A program made the position numbers and the translations under genes. This document shows, one piece after another, positions 2,709 to 26,450 of a stretch of DNA of 50,571 bases (positions are counted from its first letter, which is position 1; the number at the start of each line of letters is the position of its first letter). This DNA comes from an uncultured Candidatus Saccharibacteria bacterium. Lineage in GTDB: Bacteria > Patescibacteriota > UBA1384 > XYA2-FULL-43-10. Under the pieces are notes generated by a model. That model had not been told where the DNA came from. It saw nothing but the letters and a program-made list of their open reading frames with translations, and did not search any database. The stretch lies in assembly GCA_964486765.1 (NCBI GenBank), contig CAZAOA010000004.1:1-50571 (forward strand), given 5' to 3'.

Positions 2709-2948
2709 AGTTCCCCGAAGAGCTCGACATCCGCTGTACATTCCTAGAAATAAAGAGGCAGTAATATGGAAGATATGGATCGACAAGCCCAACTTGCAGA
2801 CCGGTTTCGGGGAGAGTTAGTGAACATATATCTTCAGAACTTGCTTCTTACTGAGAAATTGGTAGGGAGCAGAACTGAGGGTAAAACCTCGATCGTTAAA
2901 ACTAATGAGCCCCGACATGAGGCAAAAAGACACAGGAGACTTACCACC

Positions 2949-3476
2949 ATGCGTAACCTGATGATTGCTGTACTGATGCTGTCGGTGTCCGTCGTTGTTG
3001 CTGACGAAGTATCGCTTGGCTACTTTGGTGAGACTGGGTCGTACGATGGCGCATACATGAGCGCGTCGGTAGAGCAGTTCAATGTCTATGTAGAGCACGC
3101 AGGTGAGTGTAATTACACCCTCGCGATGCTCGATGCCGAGGTCGACGAAGGCCTCCGGGTGGGTATGCGTTTCGATTCACCCAGTATTTGGCGGCCGTAC
3201 GTGAAGAAGTCGATAGCGCTGGGTGACGGTTGGGTGGTCGGGCGCTGGTCGGTCGGTGGTTTGGGAGGCGTGAAGCAGCGCTTTGACATCTTCGCAGGCT
3301 ATCCGATCAACGATTGGTTGGCCGTCGAGGGCTGGGAGCGCTACCAGTCGGGATCGGCGCCAGCCCATAGTTGGGGACCGAAGGTATCGTACGGAGACTT
3401 CAGTCTCTGGTACGGCAAGAATTTCGGTGTTGGAGATGATGCTGTTATGGCAAACTACCAGGCATTTGCCTGGTGA
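2949..3476 (+). CDS. Orphan secreted beta-strand-rich protein (high-GC island A)
   Basis: Internal ATG 2949 follows AGGAG and begins a signal-peptide-like MRNLMIAVLMLSVSVVVADE. It has an alternating hydrophobic pattern and a C-terminal ...YQAFAW. The ORF-track start 2766 is probably upstream read-through. Confidence 0.5.
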   Translation: MRNLMIAVLMLSVSVVVADEVSLGYFGETGSYDGAYMSASVEQFNVYVEHAGECNYTLAMLDAEVDEGLRVGMRFDSPSIWRPYVKKSIALGDGWVVGRWSVGGLGGVKQRFDIFAGYPINDWLAVEGWERYQSGSAPAHSWGPKVSYGDFSLWYGKNFGVGDDAVMANYQAFAW

Positions 3477-3690
3477 GAAGGGGGAACTGAATTGGGCGCT
3501 TGGATAAAATGGATACTCTTACAGGGTCCAAGGCTCATTGTGCTGCCTGCCAAGACGGTCTGGATGTGCGAGTAATCCAAGGATAGTGGAATGCCCCTGG
3601 GTCGGATTACAGCGGTGAGGGATTCATCTGTATTATGGGTCTGACGAAGATACCTTCCAACCCCAAAATCACAACCGGAAGCGCCTTTAT

Positions 3691-3740
3691 ATGGTGGTTC
3701 TTCGATGGTGAATGACACCCCACGAACCCAAACGAGTCCC
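3691..3740 (+). repeat. Direct repeat copy 2 (pairs with 2658-2708)
   Basis: ATGGTGGTTCTTCGATGGTGAATGACACCCCACGAACCCAAACGAGTCCC. Closes a 26-codon ORF (3635-3715) that also ends WWFFDGE*. Confidence 0.8.
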
Positions 3741-3755
3741 CCTAAGGGGGACTCG
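3733..3755. terminator. 10-bp GC hairpin, likely bidirectional terminator (island A / Nramp gene)
   Basis: CGAGTCCCCC-TAA-GGGGGACTCG is a perfect 10-bp stem. On the minus strand it is followed by TTTGGGTT, about 25 nt after the Nramp stop. Confidence 0.45.
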
Positions 3756-3779
3756 TAGTCATTTAGATCAAATAAATAT

Positions 3780-5285
3780 TTAGAAAAATACTTCAAGTGC
3801 TAAAGTTACTATCACCGCTGCCGCCATTAAAAATACTGTTAACCAACCAAAAACCTTTACCCAAGTTGGATGAGTCTCCGCACCCATGATATTTTTGTCG
3901 TCTCCAACTTTCATTATTATATAGAGAAGTGGAACTGCGATTATACCGTTTATAAAAGCTGAATAGTAAAGTGCTTTGATCGGATCAATCCCGAAAAGAT
4001 TGAAAAGTAGTCCAAATAAAATTGAAAATGCTATCACCGCATAGAACGGTTTAGCCTTACTTGGTTTCTTATTCATCCCCTCTTTCCACTTCATAACCTC
4101 GGAGAGGGCATAGGCTCCAGACCCCGCCAAGATTGGTACGGCAAGCAGTCCAGTGCCAATTATTCCTAGAGCAAAGAGCAAATAAGCTTTATCCCCCGCA
4201 AGCGGTCGCAGAGCTTCTGCGGCTTGTTCGGCTGAATCGATAGAGTGGATTCCATTTTGAAAAAGTACTGTTGCTGTCGTTAAAATAATAAAGAAAAAGA
4301 CTAAATTGGCCAGTATCATCCCTGTTCTAACATCTGTTCGCATTCTAGCAATCCTCTGCTTTATCGGAGAAACCTTTCTGGACTCTTCTTTTTCAAGGTG
4401 CTCCTCCTCTACTTCTTCGGATGTTTGCCAGAAGAATAGATAAGGTGTGATGGTTGTACCCAGAATCGCCACCATCGCAAAAAGATAGTTTGAATTTAAG
4501 TGAATTTCAGGGACTATAGCTTCCATAGCCACAAAGCCCCAGTCCGGTTTGATCATTATCCCAGTTATCACATATGCAAAAACTGACAAAGTCAGCCATT
4601 TCAAGATCTTTACATAAGTTTTATAGGGAACGTAGATTTCAATTATGATGATGATTACTGCAAAAATTATAGCTGCCAGAACGAAATTGATATCTACTAA
4701 TAGCTGTAAGGAAGCGGCCATTGCGCCCAAGTCAGCGCCGATGTTTATGACATTGGCAATGATCAGAAGCATAACAGCGCTGGTGACCCAGCCCTTTTTG
4801 TATTTTTTGAGCATTACTCCGGCTAAACCCTTTGAAGTCACAACTCCTATTCGAGCACACACTTCTTGAACGGCAATCATAAGTGGCAGAATCCAAGCTG
4901 CCATCCAAATCAGCCCAAAGCCGTATTGAGCGCCAACAGAAGAGTAAGTTGCTATTCCACTTGGGTCGTCATCAGAAGCACCCGTAACCAGTCCGGGACC
5001 CAAAGTCTTGAAAAAAAACTTTGCTTTATTGTAAGGGTTGTTAAAAAATTCTTTTGCCTTATTTAGCTCTTCTTGTGTAATTTGAATCGTTCCATCTGCA
5101 GTTCTGTGACCCTTAACCATCCCCCATAAAACCATCTTTTTTGCCATCACCAAAGAGATCCCCAGTTCTCGTCGAAGATCGGACAACGAAATATGTCCTC
5201 CCGCTTTCTTTAGATCTTCTAACTCTCTGCCTGCTTCTTCTAACTTTTTCTCAGATTTTGTAGTTTCTGACACAAAGTCCCCCAC
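3780..5285 (-). CDS. Nramp/MntH-family divalent metal transporter with N-terminal HTH-like extension
   Basis: GPGLVTGASDDDPSGIATYSSVGAQYGFGLIW motif and about 11 hydrophobic spans. The N-terminal ~70 aa (ISLSDLRRELGISLVMAKKMVLWGMVKGHRTADGTIQITQEEL) resemble an excisionase/MerR-type HTH. GTG start overlaps the rsmA 3' end. Confidence 0.8.
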   Translation of the reverse strand: MGDFVSETTKSEKKLEEAGRELEDLKKAGGHISLSDLRRELGISLVMAKKMVLWGMVKGHRTADGTIQITQEELNKAKEFFNNPYNKAKFFFKTLGPGLVTGASDDDPSGIATYSSVGAQYGFGLIWMAAWILPLMIAVQEVCARIGVVTSKGLAGVMLKKYKKGWVTSAVMLLIIANVINIGADLGAMAASLQLLVDINFVLAAIIFAVIIIIIEIYVPYKTYVKILKWLTLSVFAYVITGIMIKPDWGFVAMEAIVPEIHLNSNYLFAMVAILGTTITPYLFFWQTSEEVEEEHLEKEESRKVSPIKQRIARMRTDVRTGMILANLVFFFIILTTATVLFQNGIHSIDSAEQAAEALRPLAGDKAYLLFALGIIGTGLLAVPILAGSGAYALSEVMKWKEGMNKKPSKAKPFYAVIAFSILFGLLFNLFGIDPIKALYYSAFINGIIAVPLLYIIMKVGDDKNIMGAETHPTWVKVFGWLTVFLMAAAVIVTLALEVFF

Positions 5286-6163
5286 TCTAGAATTGATAGC
5301 TCTTGCGCTCTTACATTTGCATTAAGCTTTGACTTTTCTATTATACCTGCAATTTCTTCTTTAGAGAATTCTGTCCCCGAAGTTAGATTATTGAGCAAAG
5401 TTTTCCGCCTTGATGCAAACCCAGTTTTAACAACTTTGAAAAATTCTTTTTCGTCGCATCCCTGTATACTAAATTCTTTATTCTTCCGCCCTTTGGGCGA
5501 GACCTCGCCACTTTGGCGGGTAATACTTGCGATTCGAAGAATCGCGCTATCAACATCAGGTGCTGGAAAAAACGATCCGCTTTTCACTATCTTAATGATC
5601 TCTGGCTCTCCATATGCTTGAACCGATACGGCTAGAAGTGACATCTGCCCTGCCTGCCCTGAGCTCGTCGAACGGGGTTTGGCACAGATTCGCTCTGCTA
5701 CTTCTTTTTGAGTCATCATCACAATCAGCTTTGGACGATGTTCGCTCTCCAAAAAGTGCCTAAGTATTTTAGATGTAATGTAATACGGAATATTGGCAAT
5801 AAGCTTGTAGCTGTTAGCTGTTAGCTTCTTAGGTTCGATATCAAGAATATCTTGATTTATAATTTGAATATTTGAATTTGTTTGATTATTGTCTCTTGTA
5901 TCTTGTTTCTTTAGAAGTTTTGCAAGTTTCTCATCCAACTCTACTGCTATCACTTCTTTGCAATATTTTGAAAGCTCAAATGTAAGTGTTCCGAGTCCTG
6001 GACCGACTTCAACAATGGTATCATCTTTGCTTAAATTGGCGGTTTCGATAATCGTGTCCAATACATCTCGATCAATTAAAAAATTCTGCCCCAAAGACTT
6101 CTTTGTATAAAGCCCGTTGCTTTTTAGAAAATGTATTAATTCCGACTTATTTGTTAAATCCAT
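5240..6163 (-). CDS. rsmA: 16S rRNA (adenine1518/1519-N6)-dimethyltransferase RsmA/KsgA
   Basis: KKSLGQNFLIDRDVLDTII...IVEVGPGLGTLTFEL and NIPYYITS motifs. Confidence 0.9.
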   Translation of the reverse strand: MDLTNKSELIHFLKSNGLYTKKSLGQNFLIDRDVLDTIIETANLSKDDTIVEVGPGLGTLTFELSKYCKEVIAVELDEKLAKLLKKQDTRDNNQTNSNIQIINQDILDIEPKKLTANSYKLIANIPYYITSKILRHFLESEHRPKLIVMMTQKEVAERICAKPRSTSSGQAGQMSLLAVSVQAYGEPEIIKIVKSGSFFPAPDVDSAILRIASITRQSGEVSPKGRKNKEFSIQGCDEKEFFKVVKTGFASRRKTLLNNLTSGTEFSKEEIAGIIEKSKLNANVRAQELSILEWGTLCQKLQNLRKS

Positions 6164-7158
6164 TAGTACCTTTTAAGTGGTGGCCAACGATCTTTATAGC
6201 CATGAGTCAATGCCCAAGCTGTAACGTGTATCTGCGAACTTGCATCCCAAATGCTTGCACCTGCATACCCGGCTTTAGGAGATACCAAATCCCATAAACT
6301 TTCAGAGTATTGGAATAACCCCTTATGTGGTCCACCGTTTGAATTCGGATTACCCATACTCTCGACCTTCATCAGATAACAGATCATGTTGGGATCAGCA
6401 TCGTATTTGGCCGATGCTTTAAGAACAATATCATTGAATTTGCACCATCCGGTTATAACCGGTTTGATCCCTACAATCAGTATCTTATCTACCGGCTCTG
6501 AAACTATCTCTGTGCTTACCAATGTTTTAGATATCTGTTCGCCATCCTCTCGAATTACTTCGTATGTAAACTTTTTCTCACCTCTTTCTCCAGCTCGCTC
6601 AACACGAGTTTTGCCCTGATCCAGATTTGGATCATCTTTTTCAACTACATCGAAATCTATATCTTCGTATTCATGAACATTTGTCCTTGCAACTCTTATG
6701 ATTTTAATACTCATACCCAACGTTAAATTTTCATCTTCTGAGAAGTTAATCTTGTCTTCATCGCCAAGTGCTACATTTTTTTCAAGAAGTAGTTCGCCAA
6801 CAGTAGTAGTCCAAGAGCGATATAGGGTTGATTTTTTACCATCTACAACTGTATAACTCGAGGCTCGATGCAATGTGATCTTCCCGCCCATCTCAAAGCC
6901 CAATTCGGGAAAAGAAGTTAGTCTATCCTCCGGAAATGGGTTTACGTCTAAGTCAACCGAAATCGTTCGTAAATCTATCTCGGTACTTGATCCGCTATGT
7001 ACAATAACTTCCCCTGTCGGTAAAACCTCCTCAACCAAAAAAGGCCAGCTGTCGGGTTCTGGGCTTAAAAGATCATTATTTGATTTTGCGTATGAGTAGC
7101 CGGCGAATAAAAAAACTGGAATAAATAGCAACGCCAGCAGGTTTATAATTATTTTCAT
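6163..7158 (-). CDS. Secreted RpfB-like cell-wall hydrolase (DUF348-like repeats, G5 domain, transglycosylase-like C-terminus)
   Basis: Signal/anchor MKIIINLLALLFIPVFLFAGYSYA. G5-like segment YEVIREDGEQISKTLVSTEIVSEPVDKILIVG. C-terminal VESMGNPNSNGGPHKGLFQYS lytic-transglycosylase-type motif. Confidence 0.75.
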   Translation of the reverse strand: MKIIINLLALLFIPVFLFAGYSYAKSNNDLLSPEPDSWPFLVEEVLPTGEVIVHSGSSTEIDLRTISVDLDVNPFPEDRLTSFPELGFEMGGKITLHRASSYTVVDGKKSTLYRSWTTTVGELLLEKNVALGDEDKINFSEDENLTLGMSIKIIRVARTNVHEYEDIDFDVVEKDDPNLDQGKTRVERAGERGEKKFTYEVIREDGEQISKTLVSTEIVSEPVDKILIVGIKPVITGWCKFNDIVLKASAKYDADPNMICYLMKVESMGNPNSNGGPHKGLFQYSESLWDLVSPKAGYAGASIWDASSQIHVTAWALTHGYKDRWPPLKRY

Positions 7159-7248
7159 GGAGCTTTGTAAAACATTTTCATGTTCAAAACGCTCAATTTA
7201 ATATCAAGATTGTATTTTTGTTTACGATCATGCGACACCCTCCGACTT

Positions 7249-7328
7249 GTCCCTCGCCGTGCCACTTCCGTAGCTTTTGCGAAGGGTCGTAGCTTTAGCG
7301 AAGTGGGAAGCCTTGTGCGAAGGACGGG
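7249..7328 (-). promoter_or_regulatory. GC-rich structured leader candidate upstream of the RpfB-like gene (3 x ~20-nt tandem units, nested stems)
   Basis: Units GTAGCTTTTGCGAAGGGTC / GTAGCTTTAGCGAAGTGGGA / AGCCTTGTGCGAAGGACGGG lie at 7270-7328. Stems are 7249-7257 with 7317-7325 and 7262-7268 with 7300-7306. The outer stem has a C-A mismatch on plus but a G-U pair on minus, which favours a minus-strand RNA. Confidence 0.35.
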
Positions 7329-7493
7329 TATTAAATAGCAACAAGCCACATAATTATTCTATCACATTTCTTAAAATCTGTGTCTCCGCCAACTGGCGGA
7401 CTCTGTGAAAGATCAGCCTGTCCGCAATGTTTAGCTTATGCAGGCGGGTGTTGGAATTACCTTACAATCTTTAAATCTTATCAATAACAATTT

Positions 7494-7524
7494 TAAAAAA
7501 GCCCCCCCCGCAAGCGGAGGGAGG
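7494..7524 (-). terminator. Rho-independent terminator of island B gene
   Basis: Minus strand reads CCCTCCGC-TT-GCGGGGGG followed by CTTTTTT. Confidence 0.6.
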
Positions 7525-7568
7525 TCGGACGAAGTATTAGAATCCAAGACACGATAGGATCCGAGCGA

Positions 7569-8156
7569 CTAGTTGCGACGGAACACCCAGTGGCGTCCGT
7601 ATGTCATGTCGAGAAGGTCACCGCCGTAGCTGCTCAGCCACAGACCTCCAAGGGTAGGGCTACACCTATGATCGACGCCGAAGATTTGGGGGCGGCCATC
7701 GAATCTCGCGAGCGGCTCCATGACGATCAATAGCTTATCATCGGGCGGTTGTTTGAGGTAGTGACGGCGGATCTCTGGACCGTCTGATGCCAGACAGGGC
7801 TCCCAGCCAAGCTCAATTCCGGCTTCGTACGCTTGAGTCCAGGAGCAACCCAGCGACGGCGACGGGGAGCCGAGTTCCTCGTTAGAGGCCATGACAAAGC
7901 CAATGTCCTCCTTCGTCTGAGGGATACTGTCTGCGAAGGTGGGCTGGCTTATCATCTCGCTGGCCCATCTGTCGATATGGCTGATGGGTTTGATCTGACT
8001 CAAGGCTTGGCGAAAATCCGCCTCGGTTTTGAGTGTCCCGACCCGCACTGTCAGGAACGGTGAGCGTTCGATGAGGGCGCTCCGACCTGGCACCACTAGC
8101 ATCAGATATCTCCTTCTGCGTTTTATACGGGTTTCGCTCTCCCGAATTTCACTCAT
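7569..8156 (-). CDS. Orphan 195-aa protein (high-GC island B)
   Basis: Long ORF in a GC-rich block with its own promoter and terminator. ATG at 8156 follows the TTG of the ORF track. No family recognised and no clear SD. Confidence 0.5.
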   Translation of the reverse strand: MSEIRESETRIKRRRRYLMLVVPGRSALIERSPFLTVRVGTLKTEADFRQALSQIKPISHIDRWASEMISQPTFADSIPQTKEDIGFVMASNEELGSPSPSLGCSWTQAYEAGIELGWEPCLASDGPEIRRHYLKQPPDDKLLIVMEPLARFDGRPQIFGVDHRCSPTLGGLWLSSYGGDLLDMTYGRHWVFRRN

Positions 8157-8277
8157 CAAACGAGTGTAACCCGTAGGCTTAGCTATCTATCTAAAGAGAT
8201 CCTTCATTTTTATTCAGGATGACATTCATATCAGATAAACAATTAAGCCAAAAGGTGGTATTTGTAACTACAATAAT

Positions 8278-8393: not shown

Positions 8394-10376
8394 TCAAATT
8401 TTATCTATCAAATGCTCGGGTATATGTTCTATAAAGCGTGAGATTGGATTTGCCTGAAAGCGGCCATACAAATTTCGCTCGTAAGTATTTAATAAGTACA
8501 GATTCTTCTTTGCTCTAGTGATTCCAACATAACAAAGCCTCCTCTCCTCCTCCATCTGGTGTTGGTCATCGAGCGATCTAGAGTGAGGAAAGATCCCTTC
8601 CTCCATCCCAGTAATAAATACTGTGTCGAACTCCAAGCCCTTTGCCGAATGCAAAGTCATCAAAGTCAAAACCTTGTCGTCTCCCCCAACTTTGTCAGTA
8701 TCTTGGATAAGCGCCACTTTTTCAAGAAAAGCTTCGAGAGCTGCACCAGCTTCAGAAGCTTCAGAAACTTGAAATTGATTCTCAATTTCACTAGCTACAG
8801 TCATTAGCTCCTCTATGTTCTCCCAACGCCCTTCTCCTTCAGCAGAACCATCAAGCACCCATTTTTTGTATCCAACCTTCACCGCAACTTGCATAATCAG
8901 ATCATCTAGCCGAATATCTTCGGACTGTTGTTTCAGCTCACGCAGTATTTTGTAAAAATCCTTAACTTTTGGTGGCAGTAACTCATATTCTTCACTTGAT
9001 ACTGTATACTTGATACTTGATACTTTCTGCAATGTCTTTTCACCAATCCCCCTTGGAGGAGCTGCGATTATGCGTGCCATCGACTCCTTGTCGGCTGGAT
9101 TCACCATCAACCTTAAGTATGCGATTATGTCCTTAATCTCTTTTCGCTGATAAAACTGAACTCCACCCACAATCTTATATGGGATATCGAAACGAATGCA
9201 GGTTTCCTCTATAGCACGGGATTGAGCGTTGGTTCTATATAGTACCGCATAGTTATTCAAATCCCCATCTTTGCAAAGTGAACGAAGCTCAAGAGCTATA
9301 AACTCTCCTTCATCTTTTTCGTTCAATGCTTGATAAAGTGTAATTGGACGACCCGGTGCACCCTCTGTCCAAAGAGCCTTATCTGTTTTGTTTTTATTGA
9401 ATTTTATAACTTCGTTTGCCGCCTCTAAAATAGTTTGAGTTGAGCGATAGTTCTGCTCAAGTTTTATCACTTTAGCGCCGGGGTAGTGGCGCTCAAAGTT
9501 CAATATGTTTTTGAAGTTTGCTCCTCGCCAACCATAGATCGCCTGATAATCGTCGCCCACCACCATTATGTTTTTGTGTTTCGAAGCCAACAGTTTCACC
9601 CAGATGTATTGCGCCTGATTTGTGTCCTGATACTCATCAATCAAAATGTATTTGAAAGTCTCTTGGTATTTTTCTAAGATTTTAGGATTCTCTTTAAAAA
9701 GCCGAACGCATTGCATGATCAGATCGTCAAAATCAAGTGCATTGGCCTCTATTAAGTAGTCCTGATAGAGTTTGTAAATCTTGGCTGAAACTTCTGTAAT
9801 CGGCGAGTCAACGTATTTTGCATACTCTTTTGTATCCATCAGTTCATTTTTCGCCCCAGAGATAAAATAGCGGATCACTTCCGGTTTGAATTCTTTAGGG
9901 TCAATCTTTTGCTCTTTCATTAATCTTTTTACGACTGATTTGGAGTCAGAATCATCATAGATCACAAAATTGCGTGAATACCCTAAAACTTCCGCTTCTC
10001 TTCGCAATATCCGAACACAAACGCTGTGAAATGTCCCAAGCCAGGGAAGTCTGATAGGTTGTAGGTTGTAGCTTTTTAGCTTATTAGGTTTTTGGTTATT
10101 TTCAGCCAGAGGCTGATCGTCCTTTGGACGAGAATTTTGTTTGACATTAGTTAGCAATTTGCTTACTCTCCCCCCCATCTCACCCGCTGCCTTATTTGTA
10201 AATGTTACAGCAAGAACATTAAACGGTGAGACTTTCTTTTCCGATATTAGGTAAGCGATTCGGTGAGTCAGCGCTTTCGTTTTGCCACTCCCCGCTCCGG
10301 CGAGTACAAGAACAGGACCGTCAACAGTAGTTACGGCCTCTTTTTGAAACTGGTTTAATCCTTCTAGCATGTTCAT
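8394..10376 (-). CDS. pcrA: ATP-dependent DNA helicase PcrA/UvrD
   Basis: LNQFQKEAV...VLAGAGSGKTKALTHRIAYLI, TFTNKAAGEM, DEYQDTN, YRS, TLHSAKGLEF and VGITRAK motifs. True start is MNMLEGL at 10376. The 119 upstream codons of the track ORF are antisense read-through of island C. Confidence 0.9.
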   Translation of the reverse strand: MNMLEGLNQFQKEAVTTVDGPVLVLAGAGSGKTKALTHRIAYLISEKKVSPFNVLAVTFTNKAAGEMGGRVSKLLTNVKQNSRPKDDQPLAENNQKPNKLKSYNLQPIRLPWLGTFHSVCVRILRREAEVLGYSRNFVIYDDSDSKSVVKRLMKEQKIDPKEFKPEVIRYFISGAKNELMDTKEYAKYVDSPITEVSAKIYKLYQDYLIEANALDFDDLIMQCVRLFKENPKILEKYQETFKYILIDEYQDTNQAQYIWVKLLASKHKNIMVVGDDYQAIYGWRGANFKNILNFERHYPGAKVIKLEQNYRSTQTILEAANEVIKFNKNKTDKALWTEGAPGRPITLYQALNEKDEGEFIALELRSLCKDGDLNNYAVLYRTNAQSRAIEETCIRFDIPYKIVGGVQFYQRKEIKDIIAYLRLMVNPADKESMARIIAAPPRGIGEKTLQKVSSIKYTVSSEEYELLPPKVKDFYKILRELKQQSEDIRLDDLIMQVAVKVGYKKWVLDGSAEGEGRWENIEELMTVASEIENQFQVSEASEAGAALEAFLEKVALIQDTDKVGGDDKVLTLMTLHSAKGLEFDTVFITGMEEGIFPHSRSLDDQHQMEEERRLCYVGITRAKKNLYLLNTYERNLYGRFQANPISRFIEHIPEHLIDKI

Positions 10377-10410
10377 ATTACTGAAACAGTTTACCAAGAA
10401 AACATACCTT

Positions 10411-10448
10411 AGCCAAACATTGACACAATGGCTCTTTTTTGATAGAGT
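10411..10448 (+). promoter_or_regulatory. Cassette 1 promoter/hairpin module
   Basis: AGCCA-N13-TGGCT hairpin whose loop holds TTGACA (10420-10425), then a 17-nt spacer with T-run and TAGAGT (10443-10448). AAGGGAGG at 10475-10482. Confidence 0.5.
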
Positions 10449-10491
10449 TCTGGTGACAGAATACAGAAACCCACAAGGGAGGATGCTGGAC

Positions 10492-11028
10492 ATGAAAGTC
10501 ATCCGGAAAGTATATCCGTTCGTCCCGCTGGTCGTTGCACTGGCGCTTGTAGCCACTTTCCTCTGCCATCGGTTCAAGACCAATGGCGAACTCGAAGACG
10601 CTCGGATCGCCCGTATGAATGCTGAGCTGTCACGGGCAGAAGAATCATTCACCGTCCCAAAAGGTACGCTTCTGGCATCTACTGACGGCGAGAAGTGTCG
10701 AGTCGAAGTCTGGAGTACAGAAGCTATCCCCAACCCCTACAAGGTTCCGTATGCCGATAGTTACTCGCTCGATGGTGTAAGGGTTGTCATCTGTCCAAAA
10801 CAACCCGATGATCCAATGATCCGACGGAAGATCGAAGATGGCGTCGTTTACGATTACCAGCGATCAGGGGCCATAGAACGGCTCATAGACGATGAGCCCA
10901 TTCTCATTCCCGACATATTCACCCTGACTTCGGGTGACTCAGAAATCCAATGGGCGTTCATGCTCGCCATCCCCGACCAGAGTAAGTTTGAGTGGCGAGA
11001 AGAGCCGGCACGAGTGGCAAAGCTCTGA
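10492..11028 (+). CDS. Orphan N-terminally membrane-anchored protein (island C cassette 1)
   Basis: ATG 10492 lies 9 nt after GGAGG. Begins MKVIRKVYPFVPLVVALALVATFLCHRF followed by a soluble domain. GC-rich codons. No family recognised. Confidence 0.55.
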   Translation: MKVIRKVYPFVPLVVALALVATFLCHRFKTNGELEDARIARMNAELSRAEESFTVPKGTLLASTDGEKCRVEVWSTEAIPNPYKVPYADSYSLDGVRVVICPKQPDDPMIRRKIEDGVVYDYQRSGAIERLIDDEPILIPDIFTLTSGDSEIQWAFMLAIPDQSKFEWREEPARVAKL

Positions 11029-11048
11029 TCGTCACCAACACCGCAAGG

Positions 11049-11069
11049 CCGCCCCATACATTGGGGCGG
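11049..11069 (+). terminator. Cassette 1 terminator hairpin
   Basis: CCGCCCCA-TACAT-TGGGGCGG is an 8-bp GC stem 20 nt after the stop. The U-tract is weak. Confidence 0.45.
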
Positions 11070-11133
11070 TCGAATCATTTCTAAAACATTATTTGACTAT
11101 TTAGACCTAGATATTTTTTCGACAATATTCCAC

Positions 11134-11172
11134 GAGCCAAACATTGACACAATGGCTCTTATTTGATAGTTT
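11134..11172 (+). promoter_or_regulatory. Cassette 2 promoter/hairpin module
   Basis: GAGCCA-N13-TGGCTC hairpin, TTGACA 11144-11149, 17-nt spacer, TAGTTT 11167-11172. GGAGG at 11202-11206. Confidence 0.5.
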
Positions 11173-11212
11173 GAATAGGACGAAAATCTGCGACCACACA
11201 CGGAGGCATTCC

Positions 11213-11743
11213 ATGCATCGCAAAGGGTATACGCTGATTGAACTTCTGGTCGTGATCGTGCTCATCGTTTTATTGATAGCAATCGCTATGCCTTGTTATC
11301 AAAAGATAAGCCAGGTAAGCCGAAAAGCCGAAGCGGTCGACACAATCTTCCCACTTAAGGCCGGTGAGATCGCACATATAGCATCGTTGCTTGATGACGA
11401 AGTCATCGTTGTGTATCGGTATGAGAGTACAATCGAGTCACTCCGTGAATACAACGAACTCGTCGATCAAGGAACTGCAGGCCCTCTAGTGGCGCGTGTC
11501 ATAAGCCAACTTCCGATCGCTGGCTCTCCGCCAAACCTATACGTACTGGGAAGTGATGGACAGTCTCTGACGCTAACGCCAAACCCTCCAACCTCGATTC
11601 ATCTGCCCTGCACTTTCGAAGGGCATGAATTCACGAAAGAGATTGATGTGAAGATGAATCCGAAAGTTACGTACGTCGATCAGTCAAAAGCTCTTGCAAA
11701 GAGCGAGAGCTCCACCCGAACCGACCCTGACGCTACACGGTAG
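11213..11743 (+). CDS. Prepilin-type (class III signal peptide) protein, divergent body, C-terminal TRTDPD tail (cassette 2)
   Basis: MHRKG/YTLIELLVVIVLIVLLIAIAMP is a canonical N-methylation/cleavage motif with Glu+5. ATG 11213 lies 6 nt after GGAGG. The track start 11144 is the TTG of the -35 box. Confidence 0.7.
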   Translation: MHRKGYTLIELLVVIVLIVLLIAIAMPCYQKISQVSRKAEAVDTIFPLKAGEIAHIASLLDDEVIVVYRYESTIESLREYNELVDQGTAGPLVARVISQLPIAGSPPNLYVLGSDGQSLTLTPNPPTSIHLPCTFEGHEFTKEIDVKMNPKVTYVDQSKALAKSESSTRTDPDATR

Positions 11744-11787
11744 TTGTCAGGGGCTGTACAAATATTATTTCATTACATATAACAAAA

Positions 11788-11812
11788 AACCGCCATTATA
11801 TGGTGGTTTTTT
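11788..11812 (+). terminator. Cassette 2 rho-independent terminator
   Basis: AACCGCC-ATTATAT-GGTGGTT followed by TTTT. Confidence 0.65.
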
Positions 11813-11841
11813 GAAGTGTTAACTTTCGAAATGGAATTGAA

Positions 11842-11880
11842 GAGCCAAACACTGACACAATGGCTCTTTTTTGATAGTTT
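11842..11880 (+). promoter_or_regulatory. Cassette 3 promoter/hairpin module
   Basis: GAGCCA-N13-TGGCTC hairpin, CTGACA 11852-11857, 17-nt spacer, TAGTTT 11875-11880. GGAGG at 11909-11913. Confidence 0.45.
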
Positions 11881-11919
11881 GAATGGGACGAAAATCTGCG
11901 ACACACATGGAGGCATGCA

Positions 11920-12492
11920 ATGAGTCGCAAAGGGTTTAAGCTGATTGAAGTTCTGGTTGTGATCGCCGTCATCGCCGTCTTGGCTGCAATCCTTTTTCCT
12001 CAATTCGCAAAGGCAAAACGCAAAGCTGAATTGAAGAATGCCATGAGGAATGCCACAAAGGAGTCAATTCTTCCGCTAGAGCGCGGCGTGGTTGCCGCTT
12101 CGCACTCCTTGATGGATGGTTCCGTCAAGATCGAGTATCGGTATGACCGAACCATCACATCTCTGCAGAATTATGATGATCCTGAAACCGTGGTCATCCA
12201 CGAAACAGCCGTACCACTAGTGGTGTATGTCGACAGTCAGCTTCCGATCATTGAATCACACACGACGCCATCTAACCTTCGTCTGAGAATGGCCGACAAC
12301 CGATTCGTAGACATAGACATTGAGCCACTATCGATATCGGCGATCGATTTCCCATACATCCACAATGGCGAGGAACACACAAACAAGATCCCGGTCGAGG
12401 TTGCCCGAACCGAATACCTTGATCTGTCTGGATTAACAGACACAGAAGTCGATATCGCCCGACGTACCCGAACCGACCCTGACAATTCGTAG
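11920..12492 (+). CDS. Prepilin-type (class III signal peptide) protein, paralog of cassette 2 product (cassette 3)
   Basis: MSRKG/FKLIEVLVVIAVIAVLAAILFPQFAKAKRKA. Shares YRY..TI.SL..Y and SQLPI motifs and the RTRTDPD tail with the cassette 2 product. Confidence 0.7.
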   Translation: MSRKGFKLIEVLVVIAVIAVLAAILFPQFAKAKRKAELKNAMRNATKESILPLERGVVAASHSLMDGSVKIEYRYDRTITSLQNYDDPETVVIHETAVPLVVYVDSQLPIIESHTTPSNLRLRMADNRFVDIDIEPLSISAIDFPYIHNGEEHTNKIPVEVARTEYLDLSGLTDTEVDIARRTRTDPDNS

Positions 12493-12536
12493 TTGTCAGG
12501 GGCTGTACAAACATAATTACATTACATATAACAAAA

Positions 12537-12561
12537 AACCACCAGTATATGGTGGTTTTTT
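12537..12561 (+). terminator. Cassette 3 rho-independent terminator
   Basis: AACCACC-AGTATAT-GGTGGTT followed by TTTT. Confidence 0.65.
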
Positions 12562-12589
12562 GAATGGGCGAAAGATAGAGGTAAGCTTA
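12556..12589 (+). repeat. 34-nt direct repeat copy 1 (TTTTTGAATGGGCGAAAGATAGAGGTAAGCTTA)
   Basis: Exact repeat of 12694-12727 apart from its first base. Immediately followed by the GC hairpin 12589-12635, which is absent from copy 2. Confidence 0.85.
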
Positions 12590-12693
12590 CCTGCCCGCAA
12601 CGCCTCGCAAGCTCGGCTTGCGTGGCGGGCGAGGTCGGGAACAATATTTAAAATACTTGTTCACAATCAAAAAAACACTACTTGTTGTAATGT

Positions 12694-12727
12694 CTTTTTG
12701 AATGGGCGAAAGATAGAGGTAAGCTTA
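12694..12727 (+). repeat. 34-nt direct repeat copy 2
   Basis: CTTTTTGAATGGGCGAAAGATAGAGGTAAGCTTA. Followed by CGGGAACAAGTATTTTAAATATTG, the reverse complement of the palindrome that follows copy 1. Confidence 0.85.
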
Positions 12728-13012
12728 TCGGGAACAAGTATTTTAAATATTGCCCGGTTACATTTCTTTCGCCCGAAAGGAGCCTAGCAGGTTATGTATT
12801 ATCCCTTATGAAACAAATAGTCACACAAAAGAATTTTTCCTGCTTTACTCTCTTTACATTTTTGGCCCTACCCATTCAAAGTACAAAGAATGACTGAATA
12901 ATTTAGTAGGACTGAGCTGGGAGGAAGATGACGATAACAAAGTTTAACATTACGCATCATCTTCCTTATAGGAGGGCGGGAGCATTCCCTCCAAATCCCA
13001 TCTCACTCTTAC

Positions 13013-13037
13013 TAAAAAAAACGTCCACGGGGGACGT
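13013..13037 (-). terminator. Rho-independent terminator (minus strand), probably for dnaB
   Basis: Minus strand reads ACGTCC-CCCGT-GGACGT followed by TTTTTTTT. Confidence 0.6.
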
Positions 13038-13307
13038 CTTTGTCTTTCTAATAAGCCAAGCAGCTAATAAGCTACAAGCTAACAGGTCCCTCCGTATTTC
13101 AATTTTTTGTTGTTAATGAACTTTTGTTTTAACAAATTATATCATTATATCTCATATACAATATGTTGTCAAGTCTTTTTGTGGTCTGGTATAATTCACG
13201 CCATATATTTATCTAATATGCGAGTGGATATTTAGCATATTTAACCTAAATATTGATTAATATCTCATATACAATATTCAACATTCCAAATACAGTATTC
13301 TGCTTTA

Positions 13308-14741
13308 TCAGTCTATCGGCTCAAGATCCCTAGCACTGATTTCTCCAGCGCGTTTTTTCTCAAGATCCCTAAAGCGCATCTGCTCTGGATGGAAGAAAAG
13401 CTCACAAGCCCCAGTCGGACCATTTCTATGTTTTTTGATCAGAACTTCGGTTATCCCTTTTCTGTCTGTATCAGGTTCATAGTACTCTTCGCGATACAAA
13501 AAGGCTACCACATCGGCATCTTGCTCGATAGATCCACTCTCGCGTAAATCCGAGAGTTGCGGACGTTTGTCAGGACGATGTTCAACAGCACGAGAAAGCT
13601 GTGAAATCGCAATGACCGGTACGTCGAGTTCACGTGCCAATCCTTTAAGTGAACGAGATATTTCAGAGATCTCTTGGACTCGATTACTTTCCCCTGAACG
13701 AGATCGACCTTCCATGAGCTGCATATAGTCAATAATAATCAGCCCCAATCCATGTTCCATCTGAAGTCTTCTTGCTTTTGCTCGTATCTCCATCACATTT
13801 GCCCCAGCAGTATCGTCCAAAAACAGAGGTGCTTCCGCTAAAACCCCCATCGCATAACCTATCTTTGGAAAATCATCGTCACTTAAGTTTCCCGTTCGAA
13901 GTTTCCAAGAATCAACTCCTGCTTGCGAGGAAAGCAATCTGTCCACCAGCTGGTCCTTACTCATCTCTAAGGAAAATATCCCAACTGGGATCTTTTCCTC
14001 GATGGCAACATGCTCTGCAATATTTAATGCAAAAGAAGTTTTACCCATAGATGGACGAGCCGCTAGAACTATCAAATCAGAATTCTGAAAACCAGAAGTT
14101 AAGTTGTCAAGATCTCGAAAACCGGATGGGGTTCCGCGAAGAGCACCCTTTTCTTTATCTTTATGAATCTTATCGATCCTATCGAAGGCTTCGGTCAAAA
14201 CATCTTTAACTGGAACAAATTTATCTTTTAAGAATTTTTGTGAAACCGCAAAAAGTGCTTGCTCGGCCTTGTCCAATGTGTCAGAGATCTCTGCATCTTC
14301 CTCATCGTATCCCAACCCGCCGATGGTGCCAGAACATTCTATTAGGCGACGCAAGACTGCTTTATCTCTTGTAATTTGTGCGTAATGGACAACGTTGGTT
14401 GCAGATGGAGTCAGATTCACTACTTCTGCAAGATAGCTCGATCCCCCAACTTCATTAAGCTTGTCGTCGTTTTCCAAAACTTCAGAGAGCGTTACAATAT
14501 CGATCGGCTTTCTCTGTTCAAAGAGTGTGATCATCGCACCAAAGATAACGCCATGCCTATCCTCATAAAAATCTTCAGAGTAAACTACGTCGGCAATCTT
14601 TACGATGGCGTCTTTTTCTAAAAGAATCGCACCCAAAACTGAACGCTCCGCGTCTATATTTTGTGGAGGAATCCGAACATCCTTAGGGATGTTCACCTTC
14701 TTCTTATTCCTCCTATTATCTTTTCCCTCACTTTTTGCCAT
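13308..14741 (-). CDS. dnaB: Replicative DNA helicase DnaB
   Basis: PPQNIDAERSVLGAILL N-terminal motif, Walker A ARPSMGKTSFALN, IIDYMQLM, and SQLSR..E.R.DKRP..SDLRESG.IEQDAD. Confidence 0.95.
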   Translation of the reverse strand: MAKSEGKDNRRNKKKVNIPKDVRIPPQNIDAERSVLGAILLEKDAIVKIADVVYSEDFYEDRHGVIFGAMITLFEQRKPIDIVTLSEVLENDDKLNEVGGSSYLAEVVNLTPSATNVVHYAQITRDKAVLRRLIECSGTIGGLGYDEEDAEISDTLDKAEQALFAVSQKFLKDKFVPVKDVLTEAFDRIDKIHKDKEKGALRGTPSGFRDLDNLTSGFQNSDLIVLAARPSMGKTSFALNIAEHVAIEEKIPVGIFSLEMSKDQLVDRLLSSQAGVDSWKLRTGNLSDDDFPKIGYAMGVLAEAPLFLDDTAGANVMEIRAKARRLQMEHGLGLIIIDYMQLMEGRSRSGESNRVQEISEISRSLKGLARELDVPVIAISQLSRAVEHRPDKRPQLSDLRESGSIEQDADVVAFLYREEYYEPDTDRKGITEVLIKKHRNGPTGACELFFHPEQMRFRDLEKKRAGEISARDLEPID

Positions 14742-16757: not shown

Positions 16758-16844
16758 GTAGATAGTTTACTAGATTGTAGTTTTTTAAGTTTCGAATCTT
16801 TATCGTTTGGGTTTGTTTAGTATTTAGATGTTGATCAATTGTTC

Positions 16845-16988
16845 GACACCTGCCCGTCCTGCGCTCGAGTTTGTCTCGAAACCTATCCGCCGTGGCTCGA
16901 CCACGGCGAGACAGGCGGGTTCGCAGACGAATCGTCGCTACGGAGGGCGCGACAGACTATCGATAAAATTAAGGTGTCGCGGAGGGGA
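16845..16988 (+). promoter_or_regulatory. GC-rich conserved 5' leader element, copy P (upstream of pilB)
   Basis: GC-rich block inside an AT-rich leader. It shares GTCTCGAAACCTAT...GGGTTCGCAG.CGAA.CGTCGCT..GG.GGGC.CGACA.ACTAT.GA.AA..TTAAGGTGTCG.GGAGGGG.ATG with 30862-30960 (minus). It carries an extra 8-bp hairpin CGCCGTGG-CTCGA-CCACGGCG at 16888-16908. Confidence 0.5.
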
Positions 16989-19586
16989 ATGAACAGAAAA
17001 GAGCTAGCGAGGGAACTGGCCAAAAAGACCAAACTTTCGGCTAAGCAAGCCGAGAATCTTATAATTGCCTTCGGTGCTGTAGTCACCGATGTTCTAGAAA
17101 AGCAAGAAAAAATCGTTTACTCAAATTTTGGGACATTTTACACTGTTCACTATCCTTCAAAAACAATCTATCACCCAAAACTTGGCAAAAAGAAAACCAT
17201 GATAATGCTTCCGACCAATGCCGCAAAGTGGATGCCCGCAAGTAATATTAAAAAGATGGTAAATGGAGGAGTAGAAGTGGATGAACCAACTAGACACAAA
17301 GCAACAAAATCTCCGATTCAAAAGCCAGATGTTAAAGATGTTCCAGAAAAACCCAAGACCGAAAGCGTAAAGCCGAAAGTTGCAAGTAAACTCGATGAGA
17401 TCGAGGATCTGGAAGAATATCAGAAAGCCAAAAAAGAGATGGCAGATGGGACTCCTTTTGATGTTGGAGATAAGTCAACGTCAAAAAAAGTCAAAGAAGT
17501 AGAAAAAGAGCGAGCAAATATATATGAAGAAACTATGGCGGATGGTTCTAGCGAGCTCTCAACTGTGGACGGCTCAATCAAACTTCATGATGACAAAGAC
17601 GATCATACGATAGATGATGGTCGCAATATGGATAATAGTCATAAGATGGACGATATAGTTGCAAAAAATAAAGAACTTGAAGAAGAAAAAGATAAGAAAC
17701 CAGAGAAAAAAGAAACAAGTCACGATGGAGCATTTAGCAAAATAAAATCAAAGTTCGGGTTTGGCCATAAAGATGATGAAAAAGTGGATGAAGTCAAAAA
17801 AGAAACCAAGGAAGATGAAGAAACGTCTGTAAGTCTTGCAGGATCAGGTATTTTTGGAACTGAGAATATGAAAGATCGCGAAAAAGAAAAAGATATTAAG
17901 ACTACTGGAGCACGAAAGATTGATAAAATAAAAGACGAATTTCACGAAGGCTCAAAAGGCGATGATGATGATTCACTTAGCAAAAGTGCTGAGATACAAA
18001 AACCGAATTTAAGCCTAGTTAGAGAGCCTGTAAATATTGTTTACAAGGACCTTACAAAAGAAGATATCGATAAAGAACTTCTCAAAAAGGTTCCACTTAA
18101 GATTGCCAGAAAATACAAAGCCGTTCCATTGAATGAGAAAGATGGAGTAATCTCCGTTGCTATGGTTGACCCGCAAGATGTCGAGACCAAAGAGATCTTA
18201 AAAAAGAATTTGGGTCAAAATCTTCAAATTGTGCTCTCTACTGAAGCAGATATTAATCATGTTTTGAATCAATACCAAGGCTTGGAAAGTGAAGTTACTA
18301 GCGTTATAGAGGGTGCCGTATCTGCAGGAGAGAAAGATGAAGAAAAGAAAAAGAAAGAAGAGAAAAAGAAAGTTACTGCAGATGAGATCTCCGATGACGC
18401 TCCAGCTGCAAAAATCGTGGATTCATTACTGAAGCGCGCCATTCGTGATAAGGCTTCAGATATTCACATAGAGCCTGCTGAGAAAGAAGTTGAGGTCAGA
18501 TTCAGGATTGATGGAGTACTTCGAAAGAAAGTTTCGCTCCCTAAAGACATTCAGGCTGCAGTTGTTTCTCGATTAAAGATCTTATCAAATATGAAGATTG
18601 ATGAACAGCGTGTGCCTCAAGATGGAAGATTTAACATGATTGTAGATAATAGACAAGTCGACTTTCGTGTTTCGACCATGCCAATCTCTTCTGGTGAAAA
18701 AGTAGTTATGCGTATCTTGGATAAAGAAACTGGAATTTTGACAATAGAACAGTTAGGTATTCAGGGTAGTGGTAAAGTAGTCATCGAAGACAACCTTAAA
18801 AAGAGCCATGGGATGATACTTGTTACCGGTCCTACTGGTTCAGGTAAGTCCACCACTCTTTATGCTATGATCAGCAAGATTTTCAATGTTGGAGTAAATA
18901 TTATTACACTTGAAGATCCGATTGAGTATCAGATCAAAGGAATCAACCAAAGCCAAGTTAATTCAGCTATCGGTTACACATTTGCAAGTGGGCTTAGATC
19001 CATTCTAAGACAAGATCCGGACATTATCATGCTTGGGGAGATTCGTGACAAAGAAACTGCAGAGATGGCCGTTCACGCCGCTCTAACTGGTCATGTACTT
19101 TTGTCTACTCTTCACACAAACACAGCTGCAGGTGCAGCACCTCGAATGATTGATATGGGTGTTGAGCCATTCCTTTTAACTTCTTCCATAAATGTAATTA
19201 TTGCTCAAAGACTTGTAAGAAAGATCTGTAGCGAATGCAAAGAGGAAGTCAAGCTTGCTCCCGAAGAGCTAGAAACAGTCAAAAAAGAGATTGAATTACT
19301 TCCTGAAAAGGAAAAAGCTGAGATTAAAAAGAAAGACATTAAGTTTTTCCATGGAAAAGGCTGCAAGACTTGCGATAATTCTGGAACAAAAGGACGAATT
19401 GGAATCTATGAAGTACTTGATGTAACTGAAGAGATAAAAGCGTTGGTTCAACAGCGTTCTTCAGACGCAGGGATCCATAAGATTGCAATTTCACAAGGGA
19501 TGGTTACCTTATTACAAGATGGAATAATCAAAGCCGTAAATGGTGAAATACCAATGACTGAAGTATGGAGAACAACTAAGGAATAA
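16989..19586 (+). CDS. pilB: HU/IHF-like DNA-binding domain fused through a K/E/D-rich linker to type IV pilus assembly ATPase PilB (GspE family)
   Basis: ATG 16989 follows GGAGGGG. Residues 1-95 (MNRKELARELAKKTKLSAKQAENLIIAFGAVVTDVLEKQEKIVYSNFGTFYTVHYP...) look like HU. Then come a T2SSE_N-like domain, Walker A GPTGSGKSTT, and the tetracysteine CSEC...CKTC. The 50 upstream codons of the track ORF lie in the leader. Confidence 0.85.
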   Translation: MNRKELARELAKKTKLSAKQAENLIIAFGAVVTDVLEKQEKIVYSNFGTFYTVHYPSKTIYHPKLGKKKTMIMLPTNAAKWMPASNIKKMVNGGVEVDEPTRHKATKSPIQKPDVKDVPEKPKTESVKPKVASKLDEIEDLEEYQKAKKEMADGTPFDVGDKSTSKKVKEVEKERANIYEETMADGSSELSTVDGSIKLHDDKDDHTIDDGRNMDNSHKMDDIVAKNKELEEEKDKKPEKKETSHDGAFSKIKSKFGFGHKDDEKVDEVKKETKEDEETSVSLAGSGIFGTENMKDREKEKDIKTTGARKIDKIKDEFHEGSKGDDDDSLSKSAEIQKPNLSLVREPVNIVYKDLTKEDIDKELLKKVPLKIARKYKAVPLNEKDGVISVAMVDPQDVETKEILKKNLGQNLQIVLSTEADINHVLNQYQGLESEVTSVIEGAVSAGEKDEEKKKKEEKKKVTADEISDDAPAAKIVDSLLKRAIRDKASDIHIEPAEKEVEVRFRIDGVLRKKVSLPKDIQAAVVSRLKILSNMKIDEQRVPQDGRFNMIVDNRQVDFRVSTMPISSGEKVVMRILDKETGILTIEQLGIQGSGKVVIEDNLKKSHGMILVTGPTGSGKSTTLYAMISKIFNVGVNIITLEDPIEYQIKGINQSQVNSAIGYTFASGLRSILRQDPDIIMLGEIRDKETAEMAVHAALTGHVLLSTLHTNTAAGAAPRMIDMGVEPFLLTSSINVIIAQRLVRKICSECKEEVKLAPEELETVKKEIELLPEKEKAEIKKKDIKFFHGKGCKTCDNSGTKGRIGIYEVLDVTEEIKALVQQRSSDAGIHKIAISQGMVTLLQDGIIKAVNGEIPMTEVWRTTKE

Positions 19587-19640
19587 TCAAACTTCAACTT
19601 TCAATGTGAAAATGGAAATTGGAAATTGGAAAATAATATT

Positions 19641-26419: not shown

Positions 26420-26450
26420 TTGGAATAATTAATAACGACGAAGGAGTTTT

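Follow-up and report, generated by a model that had tools for sequence, protein, structure and literature searches.

A putative lineage-restricted variable type IV pilin locus between pcrA and dnaB in a Berkelbacteria-like bacterium of the candidate phyla radiation

In Pseudomonas aeruginosa the pilA allele groups consist of a monocistronic pilin gene, with or without an accessory gene, situated between pilB and tRNA-Thr, a fixed site at which divergent alleles sit on a similar backbone, show an atypical composition and are replaced through recombination in the flanks. The pilE/pilS system of Neisseria yields mosaic alleles with sharp breakpoints, and a conserved short repeat follows every pilin copy. 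Integron cassettes are compact units of a single open reading frame (ORF), bounded by structured inverted repeats, arrayed in tandem and variable in content from strain to strain. For the candidate phyla radiation (CPR, or Patescibacteria), a study of the Saccharibacteria TM7x (PMC11623550) describes pilins whose C-terminal domains diversify and whose N-terminal signal and helix are conserved, together with poorly conserved "diversifying" globular domains and a conserved type IV pilus machinery. Here we describe a locus that resembles all four systems in these respects. It is located on a stretch of 50,571 nucleotides of contig CAZAOA010000004.1 (the whole stretch analyzed, hereafter the window), from what appears to be, judging by its DnaB protein, a Berkelbacteria-like CPR bacterium, and comprises three monocistronic plus-strand units (genes U1, U2, and U3) at 10405-12564, between the start of pcrA and the 3' end of dnaB. 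We refer to this segment as an islet, as it is atypical in composition and missing from relatives with conserved flanking synteny. We consider it, with a probability of roughly 0.65, a hypervariable type IV pilin locus restricted to its lineage, in which homologous recombination through the conserved regulatory ends generates diversity.

The comparison also brings out clear differences. Unlike pilA of P. aeruginosa, the islet is found between pcrA and dnaB, away from the pil operon, its alleles are mosaic within the gene, tandem stacking of a second complete pilin unit is possible, the orphan U1 shares the promoter module, and the pilin body is without detectable similarity to any solved pilin. 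Unlike in Neisseria, both pilin copies are complete units, no silent promoterless copies and no G-quadruplex (G4) initiator were found in the window, and exchange is seen between strains, not within a cell line. The units also differ from integron cassettes in having their own promoters and terminators and in having been found at one locus only, with no IntI or attC in the window. With respect to TM7x, the islet belongs to a Berkelbacteria-like lineage and its pilin body is unrelated; host binding has been shown for the TM7x pilins and may be presumed for those of the islet, and the available portion of PMC11623550 does not describe for TM7x a GC-rich islet, shared promoter and terminator modules, or allele mosaicism.

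An earlier note on this DNA, made from the sequence alone, had described the three-unit anatomy, and all the features it listed were found (Table 1). The units follow a common layout, with an inverted repeat around the -35 element, a 17-nt spacer containing a T-run, an extended -10, a GGAGG motif, the ORF, and a stem-loop tail. The framing by hairpins is present in all three units, although the promoter hairpin of unit 1 has only 5 bp (-4.4 kcal/mol). The atypical composition already remarked upon in the note was borne out by the statistics, the three ORFs being outliers against the 41 other ORFs of the window both in GC content (0.49-0.53 versus 0.38) and in GC at third codon positions (GC3, 0.51-0.56 versus 0.345±0.052, i.e., 3-4 standard deviations away).

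Relatives of the locus were recovered via the pilin proteins, using Logan, ENA, and JGI assemblies. A Logan contig found in five samples or runs (L002) covers the pcrA start through U1, U2, and U3 at 99.92% identity, with two single-nucleotide polymorphisms (SNPs) in 2.5 kb, both non-synonymous (T54P in U1 and G90V in U2), while L003 covers U2-U3 and L001 covers U3-dnaB, both at 100%. U3 is present in these three contigs and missing from L004-L007. L006 and L007, one sequence from two sources, span pcrA to dnaX and have, like L004, the order U1, one pilin, dnaB (the L004 contig does not include pcrA). Their DnaB protein is 99.6% identical to that of the window, with a proportion of synonymous differences (pS) of 0.19 in the gene; in L004 the sequenced 3' part of dnaB shows 92% nucleotide identity, rising to 95% over a 1,055-nt match that includes the conserved non-coding region next to the islet (see below). 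L005 is a short contig with one pilin beside dnaB, ending inside the N-terminal coding region of the pilin. The raised GC is kept in L005, L006, and L007. In the more distant L065, whose DnaB protein shares 91% identity with that of the window, pcrA is followed by a tandem pair of pilins (P0008 and a prepilin of 151 aa), each with the promoter module and the TDPD stop-codon hairpin tail, and U1 is missing. Finally, L011 and L013 (DnaB 78 and 68%) show the order dnaX, dnaB, gap, pcrA, G5 protein, Nramp, and despite this flanking synteny they contain no prepilin, no U1, and none of the three GC-rich islands of the window (the islet and two more described below). The synteny of pcrA is kept in L006, L011, L013, and L065.

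Given that close relatives share the locus, and that L011 and L013 keep the synteny without the islet, we conclude that its acquisition is ancestral to a small clade rather than limited to this genome. Members of the clade differ in its content, and the pcrA-dnaB gap is a recurrent insertion hotspot. This ancestry, together with the conserved structured non-coding element adjoining the islet, had been overlooked in the earlier note. Regarding the host, the source contig has a length of ~0.69 Mb, the DnaB of the window is 79% identical to that of a Candidatus Berkelbacteria metagenome-assembled genome (MAG), and its closest matches are all from CPR/Patescibacteria.

The contrast in evolutionary rate between the islet and its backbone is very marked. 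When the window is compared with L006, dnaB (99.6% protein identity) has a non-synonymous divergence (dN) of 0.002 and a synonymous divergence (dS) of 0.215, with a ratio (omega) of 0.008, whereas the pilin is 70% identical, with dN 0.19, dS 0.30, and omega 0.61, and U1 is 48% identical, with dN 0.40, dS 0.76, and omega 0.53. Divergence is also very uneven inside the pilin gene, where a 60-nt sliding comparison with L006 detects blocks of 93-97% identity beside blocks of 55-58%. The sharpest breakpoint is seen between U2 and the L004 allele, which differ at 76 of 272 positions 5' of nt 282 and at none of the 250 positions 3' of it (Fisher P = 9e-25), the identity carrying on through the tail. 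The partners change along the gene: over nt 121-275, U2 groups with L006 (94%) and L004 with L005 (97%), while over nt 276-400 U2 groups with L004 and L005 (97-98%) and L006 is only 60-63% identical to all three. Furthermore, the 5' part of the L004 allele contains patches matching U3 and not U2. The pilin alleles are thus recombinational mosaics between strains, to which fast protein evolution is added. The pattern of conserved ends and variable cores that the note had pointed out was confirmed as regards copy-number variation, hyper-divergent cores, and mosaicism; no dedicated exchange machinery was found to go with it.

The products of U2 and U3 are the sole canonical prepilins in the window. 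As the note had assigned them, both score above the cut-offs of PF07963 (N_methyl; 28.3 and 22.0 bits, respectively, cut-off 21.2) and TIGR02532 (26.7 and 25.6 bits, cut-off 16.3), and both have the features of a class III signal (basic leader, Gly-1, aromatic residue at +1, and Glu+5). They can be aligned along their whole length with 38-41% identity (38% by BLASTP), dS 1.2, and omega 0.48, and the U2 orthologs P0002, P0005, and P0006 are 69-77% identical to U2. A profile built from the pilins matches 21 pilins or pseudopilins of the PDB, always through query residues 2-51 only, and beyond residue 51 the body has no Pfam, NCBIfam, or PDB sequence match, in agreement with the claim that the bodies could not be recognized. 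Conserved motifs in the body are FPLxAGE, YRY, SQLPI, and the C-terminal TRTDPD. Homolog searches returned two non-self relatives for U3 and three for U2, and an exhaustive search with a body-only HMMER profile against 1.84e9 representatives gave four real relatives, adding the distant pilins P0008 and P0009 (plus one spurious repeat protein). With four relatives among 1.84e9 representatives, the pilin family is therefore confined to this clade. An AlphaFold2 (AF2) prediction for U3 (7 sequences) gives a helix at residues 5-46 followed by an all-beta body, with a pLDDT of 70.5 in one of five models and 45-52 in the others; the model for U2 (5 sequences; pLDDT 45) was unusable. The pilin body would be a new family, no sequence or fold match having been obtained for it. 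U2 and U3 would be filament subunits and, considering that they come from monocistronic, strongly signaled units, probably major pilins. U1, by comparison, is an orphan, with a Kyte-Doolittle peak at residues 7-25; it had no Pfam or NCBIfam family above threshold, no PHROG or plasmid match, and no non-self relatives in the homolog search.

The regulatory ends are conserved. The promoter 23-mer AGCCAAACATTGACACAATGGCT has only three copies in the 50.6 kb, at positions 10411, 11135, and 11843 (one mismatch in the third); the pattern AGCCAAACA[T/C]TGACACAATGGCT has the same number of window copies, three, and none in shuffled sequences, and the wider module TTGAC-N8-TCTTTTTTGATAG is restricted to the same three sites within the window. 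The -35 is TTGACA in units 1 and 2 and CTGACA in unit 3, and the extended -10 is either TGATAGAGT or TGATAGTTT. In eight units from four genomes the -35 always falls inside the inverted repeat and is followed by TCTTTTTTGATA. The arms themselves change, being GAGCCA/TGGCTC in the window and L004, GAGCTA/TAGCTC in U2 of L006, and AGACCC/GGGTCT in unit 2 of L065, and the pairing is kept, so selection seems to act on the pairing of the arms. A common palindromic operator for one regulator was considered and is unlikely, because the arms differ between the two units of L065, with compensatory changes. Hairpins are strongest in the internal units (-7 to -10 kcal/mol), in first units beside pcrA they are weak or not the minimum-free-energy fold, and the genes upstream of internal units (U1 of the window and unit 1 of L065) end in a hairpin without a T-run. 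Based on these two observations, the most likely hypothesis is that the promoter hairpin plus its T-run would also serve the upstream gene as a terminator or insulator, the promoter of the next unit lying nested inside it.

At the other end, the tail 21-mer has only two copies in the window, and the two tails fold far better than shuffled sequences (z = -5.3 and -5.9). Seven units share the stop-codon hairpin: 95.7% of the cells are paired, a value that does not exceed 56% in slid controls, and two inner pairs of the stem have changed on both sides, so that the post-stop arm tracks changes in the final codons. The arms of the predicted terminator covary as well (CCACCA/TGGTGG versus CACTCA/TGAGTG in L065).

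The history that we propose starts in the ancestor of the clade, where foreign DNA rich in GC would have entered the divergent promoter region that separates pcrA from the RNA-like element next to dnaB. The acquired islet would have brought one or two pilins of the new family together with U1, a small protein either anchored or secreted, each gene being its own transcription unit with a putative near-consensus sigma-70 promoter, an extended -10, a strong Shine-Dalgarno (SD) sequence, and a stop-codon stem-loop, and the pilin units additionally ending in what looks like a bidirectional intrinsic terminator. The pilins would presumably be cut by prepilin peptidase and assembled by PilB/C/M/N, encoded some 4.5 kb away. 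Their coding cores would evolve very fast and be reshuffled among strains through homologous recombination, while the short regulatory ends, held by purifying selection, would passively supply the homology for it. U3 may have been gained in this lineage by recombination at the tail and promoter homology, probably from a diverged homologous locus. In our best reading, ordinary recombination and fast evolution of surface proteins explain the pattern, and a dedicated cassette system or a new genetic element is not indicated.

Several results weigh against this reading of the islet as a hypervariable pilin locus. The relatives amount to about five independent ones, most of them on short contigs. 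Neither homologs outside the clade nor an identifiable donor of the GC-rich DNA nor mobility genes were found. The omega of the islet genes (0.4-0.8) is raised and still below 1, and with these few sequences relaxed constraint and diversifying selection are inseparable. A pilus role for U2 and U3 is suggested by the N-terminal domain and the gene neighborhood; the Foldseek comparison of the U3 model with the PDB gave no match to a known pilin fold (best E 0.4, TM at most 0.18), and no prepilin peptidase was seen in the window. As for the nested design, the promoter hairpin, with its 13-nt loop and 6 bp, is not a canonical terminator, and a consensus terminator scanner made no call on it.

A bolder version would have the modules act as portable homology arms of a recombinase-independent cassette system, by which naturally competent CPR cells capture, stack, and swap whole pilin and U1-type genes taken from the DNA of related strains, switching host or surface specificity. 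Its footprint would be the insertions with 33-83-nt direct repeats of a gene tail (U3, the first of the other islands, and a 138-nt unit downstream, see below), and the hairpins could favor recombination, e.g., as single-strand structures in transformation. We regard this as rather unlikely. The note had suggested exchangeable or variable cassettes; evidence for a dedicated exchange machinery or for mobile modules was not obtained, the modules being found only at the orthologous locus of a few close relatives and, apart from these, not in GTDB genomes, JGI metagenomes, IMG/VR, or phage and plasmid collections.

A plain tandem duplication of a pilin followed by ordinary divergence, in which the similar ends reflect functional constraint, is suggested by the end-to-end alignment of the paralogs U2 and U3, by the two tandem pilins of a second lineage (L065), and by the conservation of the regulatory ends in all alleles of the clade. 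The divergence is, however, grossly non-uniform. The homology of units 2 and 3 extends precisely from the 5' hairpin to the terminator T-run plus GAA, with 95% identity over 61 nt of promoter and leader, 77% over the next 99 nt, 100% over the 18 nt of the TRTDPD codons, and 93% over the 76-nt tail. A recent plain duplication as the origin of U3 is excluded, given a core dS of 1.2 versus flanks 93-95% identical and the lack of U3 in close relatives. Four of these (L004-L007) have a single pilin and no trace of U3; U3 is accompanied by its unique linker and by one more copy of the downstream anchor, whose flank has diverged; and the 3' half of U2 with its tail is 100% identical to L004 although dnaB differs by 8%. 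The relatives also keep the raised GC, contrary to the genome-typical GC and uniform divergence that the earlier note would have taken as a sign of plain tandem duplication, and we find a plain duplication unlikely. It is the U3 tail, not that of U2, that leads on to the ancestral sequence downstream; L004 has a tail identical to that of U2, and the U3 tail is nearest to that of L006 (96%). The arrangement U2, tail, linker, promoter, U3, tail, anchor would be the product expected of a single crossover in the tail homology, with a circular or a tandem-junction fragment as a conceivable incoming partner.

Programmed variation of the Neisseria pilE/pilS type would make U2 and U3 expression loci fed from silent copies, with the modules as anchors. 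The mosaic alleles with sharp breakpoints, the conserved 3' repeat after each pilin copy (analogous to the Sma/Cla repeat), and the non-synonymous nature of both within-population SNPs would fit such a system, but it seems quite improbable, since no silent or partial pilin copy was detected in the 50.6-kb window (tblastn at E<=10 with six members, U2, U3, P0002, P0003, P0005, and P0006, P0008 and P0009 having been found afterwards) and no G4 motif (G3+N1-7 x4) in 10000-13400 on either strand. Moreover, the exhaustive protein search yielded no further paralogs, the mosaic partners are the alleles of other strains and not copies in this genome, and the same-population Logan contigs are almost invariant (2 SNPs in 2.5 kb), which argues against high-frequency switching.

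We consider very unlikely a mobile cassette system, integron-like or site-specific, with the hairpin modules as sites of a recombinase encoded elsewhere. In its favor, each unit is bounded exactly by the 5' hairpin and the terminator, the arms of the hairpins vary in sequence yet keep pairing as attC sites do, and insertions in this genome are flanked by 33-83-nt direct repeats. Against it, no integrase, recombinase, transposase, or reverse transcriptase (RT) came up in the Pfam scans, which covered window ORFs of 100 aa or more, in agreement with the note's observation that the window has no recombinase, RT, or attC. No attC arrangement (R''/L''/L'/R' with GTTRRRY) was found, the 3' ends consisting of a stop-codon hairpin of 7-10 bp and an intrinsic terminator; every unit comes with a promoter of its own (TTGACA-17-TAGNNT), and the 6-bp stems are far below attC length. 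A diversity-generating retroelement is not apparent either, with no RT domain in the window and no near-identical repeat of any core segment. Exact-match scans gave nothing beyond the known relatives: the promoter hairpin had no match in GTDB genomes, JGI metagenomes, or IMG/VR, the leader none in IMG/VR, and the tail 21-mer, in JGI metagenomes and IMG/VR, only the known relatives and three chance matches of 21-24 nt. A looser promoter pattern was not present in about 0.8 Mb of related CPR loci, and tblastn against phage and plasmid records gave no match, PHROG matches being limited to the pilin N-terminus. Lastly, an assembly artefact or chimera joining DNA of a GC-richer organism to a CPR contig, evoked by the atypical composition and by the chimeric look of L005 at the pilin N-terminus, can practically be dismissed, as independent Logan, ENA, and JGI assemblies, made in different projects, reproduce the array, counter to the mis-assembly that the note had named as a refutation, and link the GC-rich genes, on either side, to one and the same CPR backbone (L002 covers pcrA-U1-U2-U3, L001 U3-dnaB, and L006/L007 pcrA-dnaX).

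Table 1. Coordinates in the window of the islet features and their flanks.
Feature	Position	Strand	Description
pcrA/uvrD-type helicase gene	8394..10376	-	Left backbone flank; Pfam UvrD-helicase 6.8e-94, UvrD_C 7.7e-82
Unit 1 promoter module	10411..10448	+	AGCCA-N13-TGGCT; -35 TTGACA 10420-10425; T-run spacer; extended -10 TGATAGAGT, -10 at 10443-10448; predicted
U1	10492..11028	+	178 aa; one N-terminal hydrophobic anchor or signal segment; orphan
U1 3' GC-rich hairpin	11047..11071	+	GGCCGCCCCA-tacat-TGGGGCGGTC; without T-run; kept in L004 and L006
Unit 2 promoter module	11134..11172	+	GAGCCA-N13-TGGCTC; -35 11144-11149; 17-nt T-run spacer; -10 TAGTTT 11167-11172; predicted
U2	11213..11743	+	176-aa prepilin MHRKG/YTLIELLVV; Glu+5; C-terminal TRTDPD; mosaic gene
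U2 stop-codon hairpin	11725..11752	+	CCCTGAC...GTCAGGG; stop codon in loop
U2 bidirectional intrinsic terminator	11783..11815	+	AAAAAACCGCCAT-tat-ATGGTGGTTTTTT; predicted from sequence
Linker, unit 2 tail to unit 3 promoter	11816..11841	+	26 nt; unique; junction in no relative
Unit 3 promoter module	11842..11880	+	GAGCCA-N13-TGGCTC hairpin; -35 CTGACA 11852-11857; -10 TAGTTT 11875-11880; predicted
U3	11920..12492	+	190-aa prepilin MSRKG/FKLIEVLVV; Glu+5; divergent paralog of U2
U3 stop-codon hairpin	12477..12501	+	CCCTGACAA-ttcgtag-TTGTCAGGG; stop codon in loop
U3 bidirectional intrinsic terminator	12532..12564	+	Predicted from sequence and folding
33-nt exact direct repeat	12557-12589 and 12695-12727	+	Brackets a 105-nt segment
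Conserved structured non-coding element	12700..13045, possibly to ~13300	+	Right boundary of the islet
dnaB replicative helicase gene	13308..14741	-	Right backbone flank; L006 ortholog with Pfam DnaB and DnaB_C

The non-coding element that bounds the islet on the dnaB side is strongly conserved. The segment 12735-13334 is about 99-100% identical to L006 (few substitutions) while the synonymous sites of dnaB differ by 19%, and the core of the element is nearly identical in L065, where covariation of the stems is likewise seen. Its P1 and P2 stems covary with L011 (98.5% of cells paired, four compensatory pairs), with 0-7 of 500 shuffles as good, and a covariance model finds the element in the gap of L013 (51 bits, E = 1.5e-8), a contig kept outside model building. 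Neither the islet hairpins nor the adjacent conserved region had a match in Rfam. The element is the ancestral occupant of the pcrA-dnaB gap, the islet having been inserted between it and pcrA, and it is a candidate new non-coding RNA (ncRNA). After its first domain comes a very short ORF, MYYPL*, which has an SD sequence. Between the islet and the element there is a 138-nt unit (12590-12727), made up of a 105-nt segment and the second copy of the 33-nt repeat and inserted at AGCTTA/TCGGGAAC. The 105-nt segment contains a stable GC hairpin and a degenerate copy of the inner hairpin of the element. This unit is found neither in L001, from the same population, nor in any close relative, and L011 (~12236-12462, minus strand) has an analogous insertion at the same site, with a 63-nt duplication. 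In L065, an extra 5.5 kb of mostly GC-rich DNA (2200-7780) lies between the non-coding element and dnaB, encoding an XRE-type helix-turn-helix (HTH) protein, a TrmB-type regulator, and several orphan membrane proteins. At the beginning of L005 (1-195), the U2-type pilin body and its CPR backbone are joined to a prepilin start of a different kind and to the 3' end of a PEP-CTERM protein of high GC. This junction probably arose by chimeric assembly at the conserved codons of the pilin helix; were it real, it would point to a possible donor. L005 comes from a deep-sea sediment metagenome, its assembly accession being cited in papers on such metagenomes.

Two more GC-rich islands are found in the window (~2038-3760 and ~7400-8200). 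They contain three more orphan ORFs (within 2038-3476 and 7569-8159) that are compositional outliers too, with GC3 of 0.60-0.67 and products that are orphan membrane or secreted proteins without Pfam, NCBIfam, or PHROG match, and both islands are missing from the syntenic L011 and L013. In the first, a ~1-kb insertion lies between direct repeats, 88-91% identical, of a gene tail (2658-2708 and 3691-3740, encoding ...WWFFDGE*); the same signature, an insertion flanked by a duplicated gene tail, is present at U3.

The pil genes are placed ~4-12 kb from the islet, with PilB, PilC, PilM, and PilN encoded at 16839-22523. The note had stated that this operon has no pilin gene; it has indeed no canonical prepilin, although a PilX_N-like protein is encoded nearby, at 23961-24983. 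The PilB/T2SSE ATPase (16839-19586, plus strand, 915 aa) has an N-terminal HU/IHF-type Bac_DNA_binding domain (residues 51-142, 6.8e-15) preceding the MshEN and ATPase domains, and its N-terminal region is also conserved in L009-L013. A PAS histidine kinase and two stand-alone receiver proteins adjoin the pil genes (23480-26810), and a ComFC-like protein with a double zinc ribbon and a phosphoribosyltransferase domain is encoded at 47524-48231 (minus strand); these are possible components of competence or pilus regulation.

CPR/Patescibacteria are obligate epibionts, and type IV pili mediate host contact in the few cultivated ones. The islet is small, strain-variable, and highly expressed in appearance; its alleles recombine as modules, and its copy number shifts among close relatives. 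It also offers a compact example of a promoter apparently nested in a terminator-like hairpin and of a stop-codon stem that co-evolves with the last codons. This kind of variable locus is already known from other bacteria and no new mechanism is needed; what is new are the pilin family, the CPR context with a GC-rich islet, the nested promoter/hairpin design that we propose, and the documented mosaicism. Its value is therefore that of a well-documented case with testable hypotheses rather than of a new principle, and the locus would be a concrete host-range candidate for uncultivated marine-sediment Berkelbacteria-like organisms, whose pilins may take part in the recognition of hosts or surfaces.

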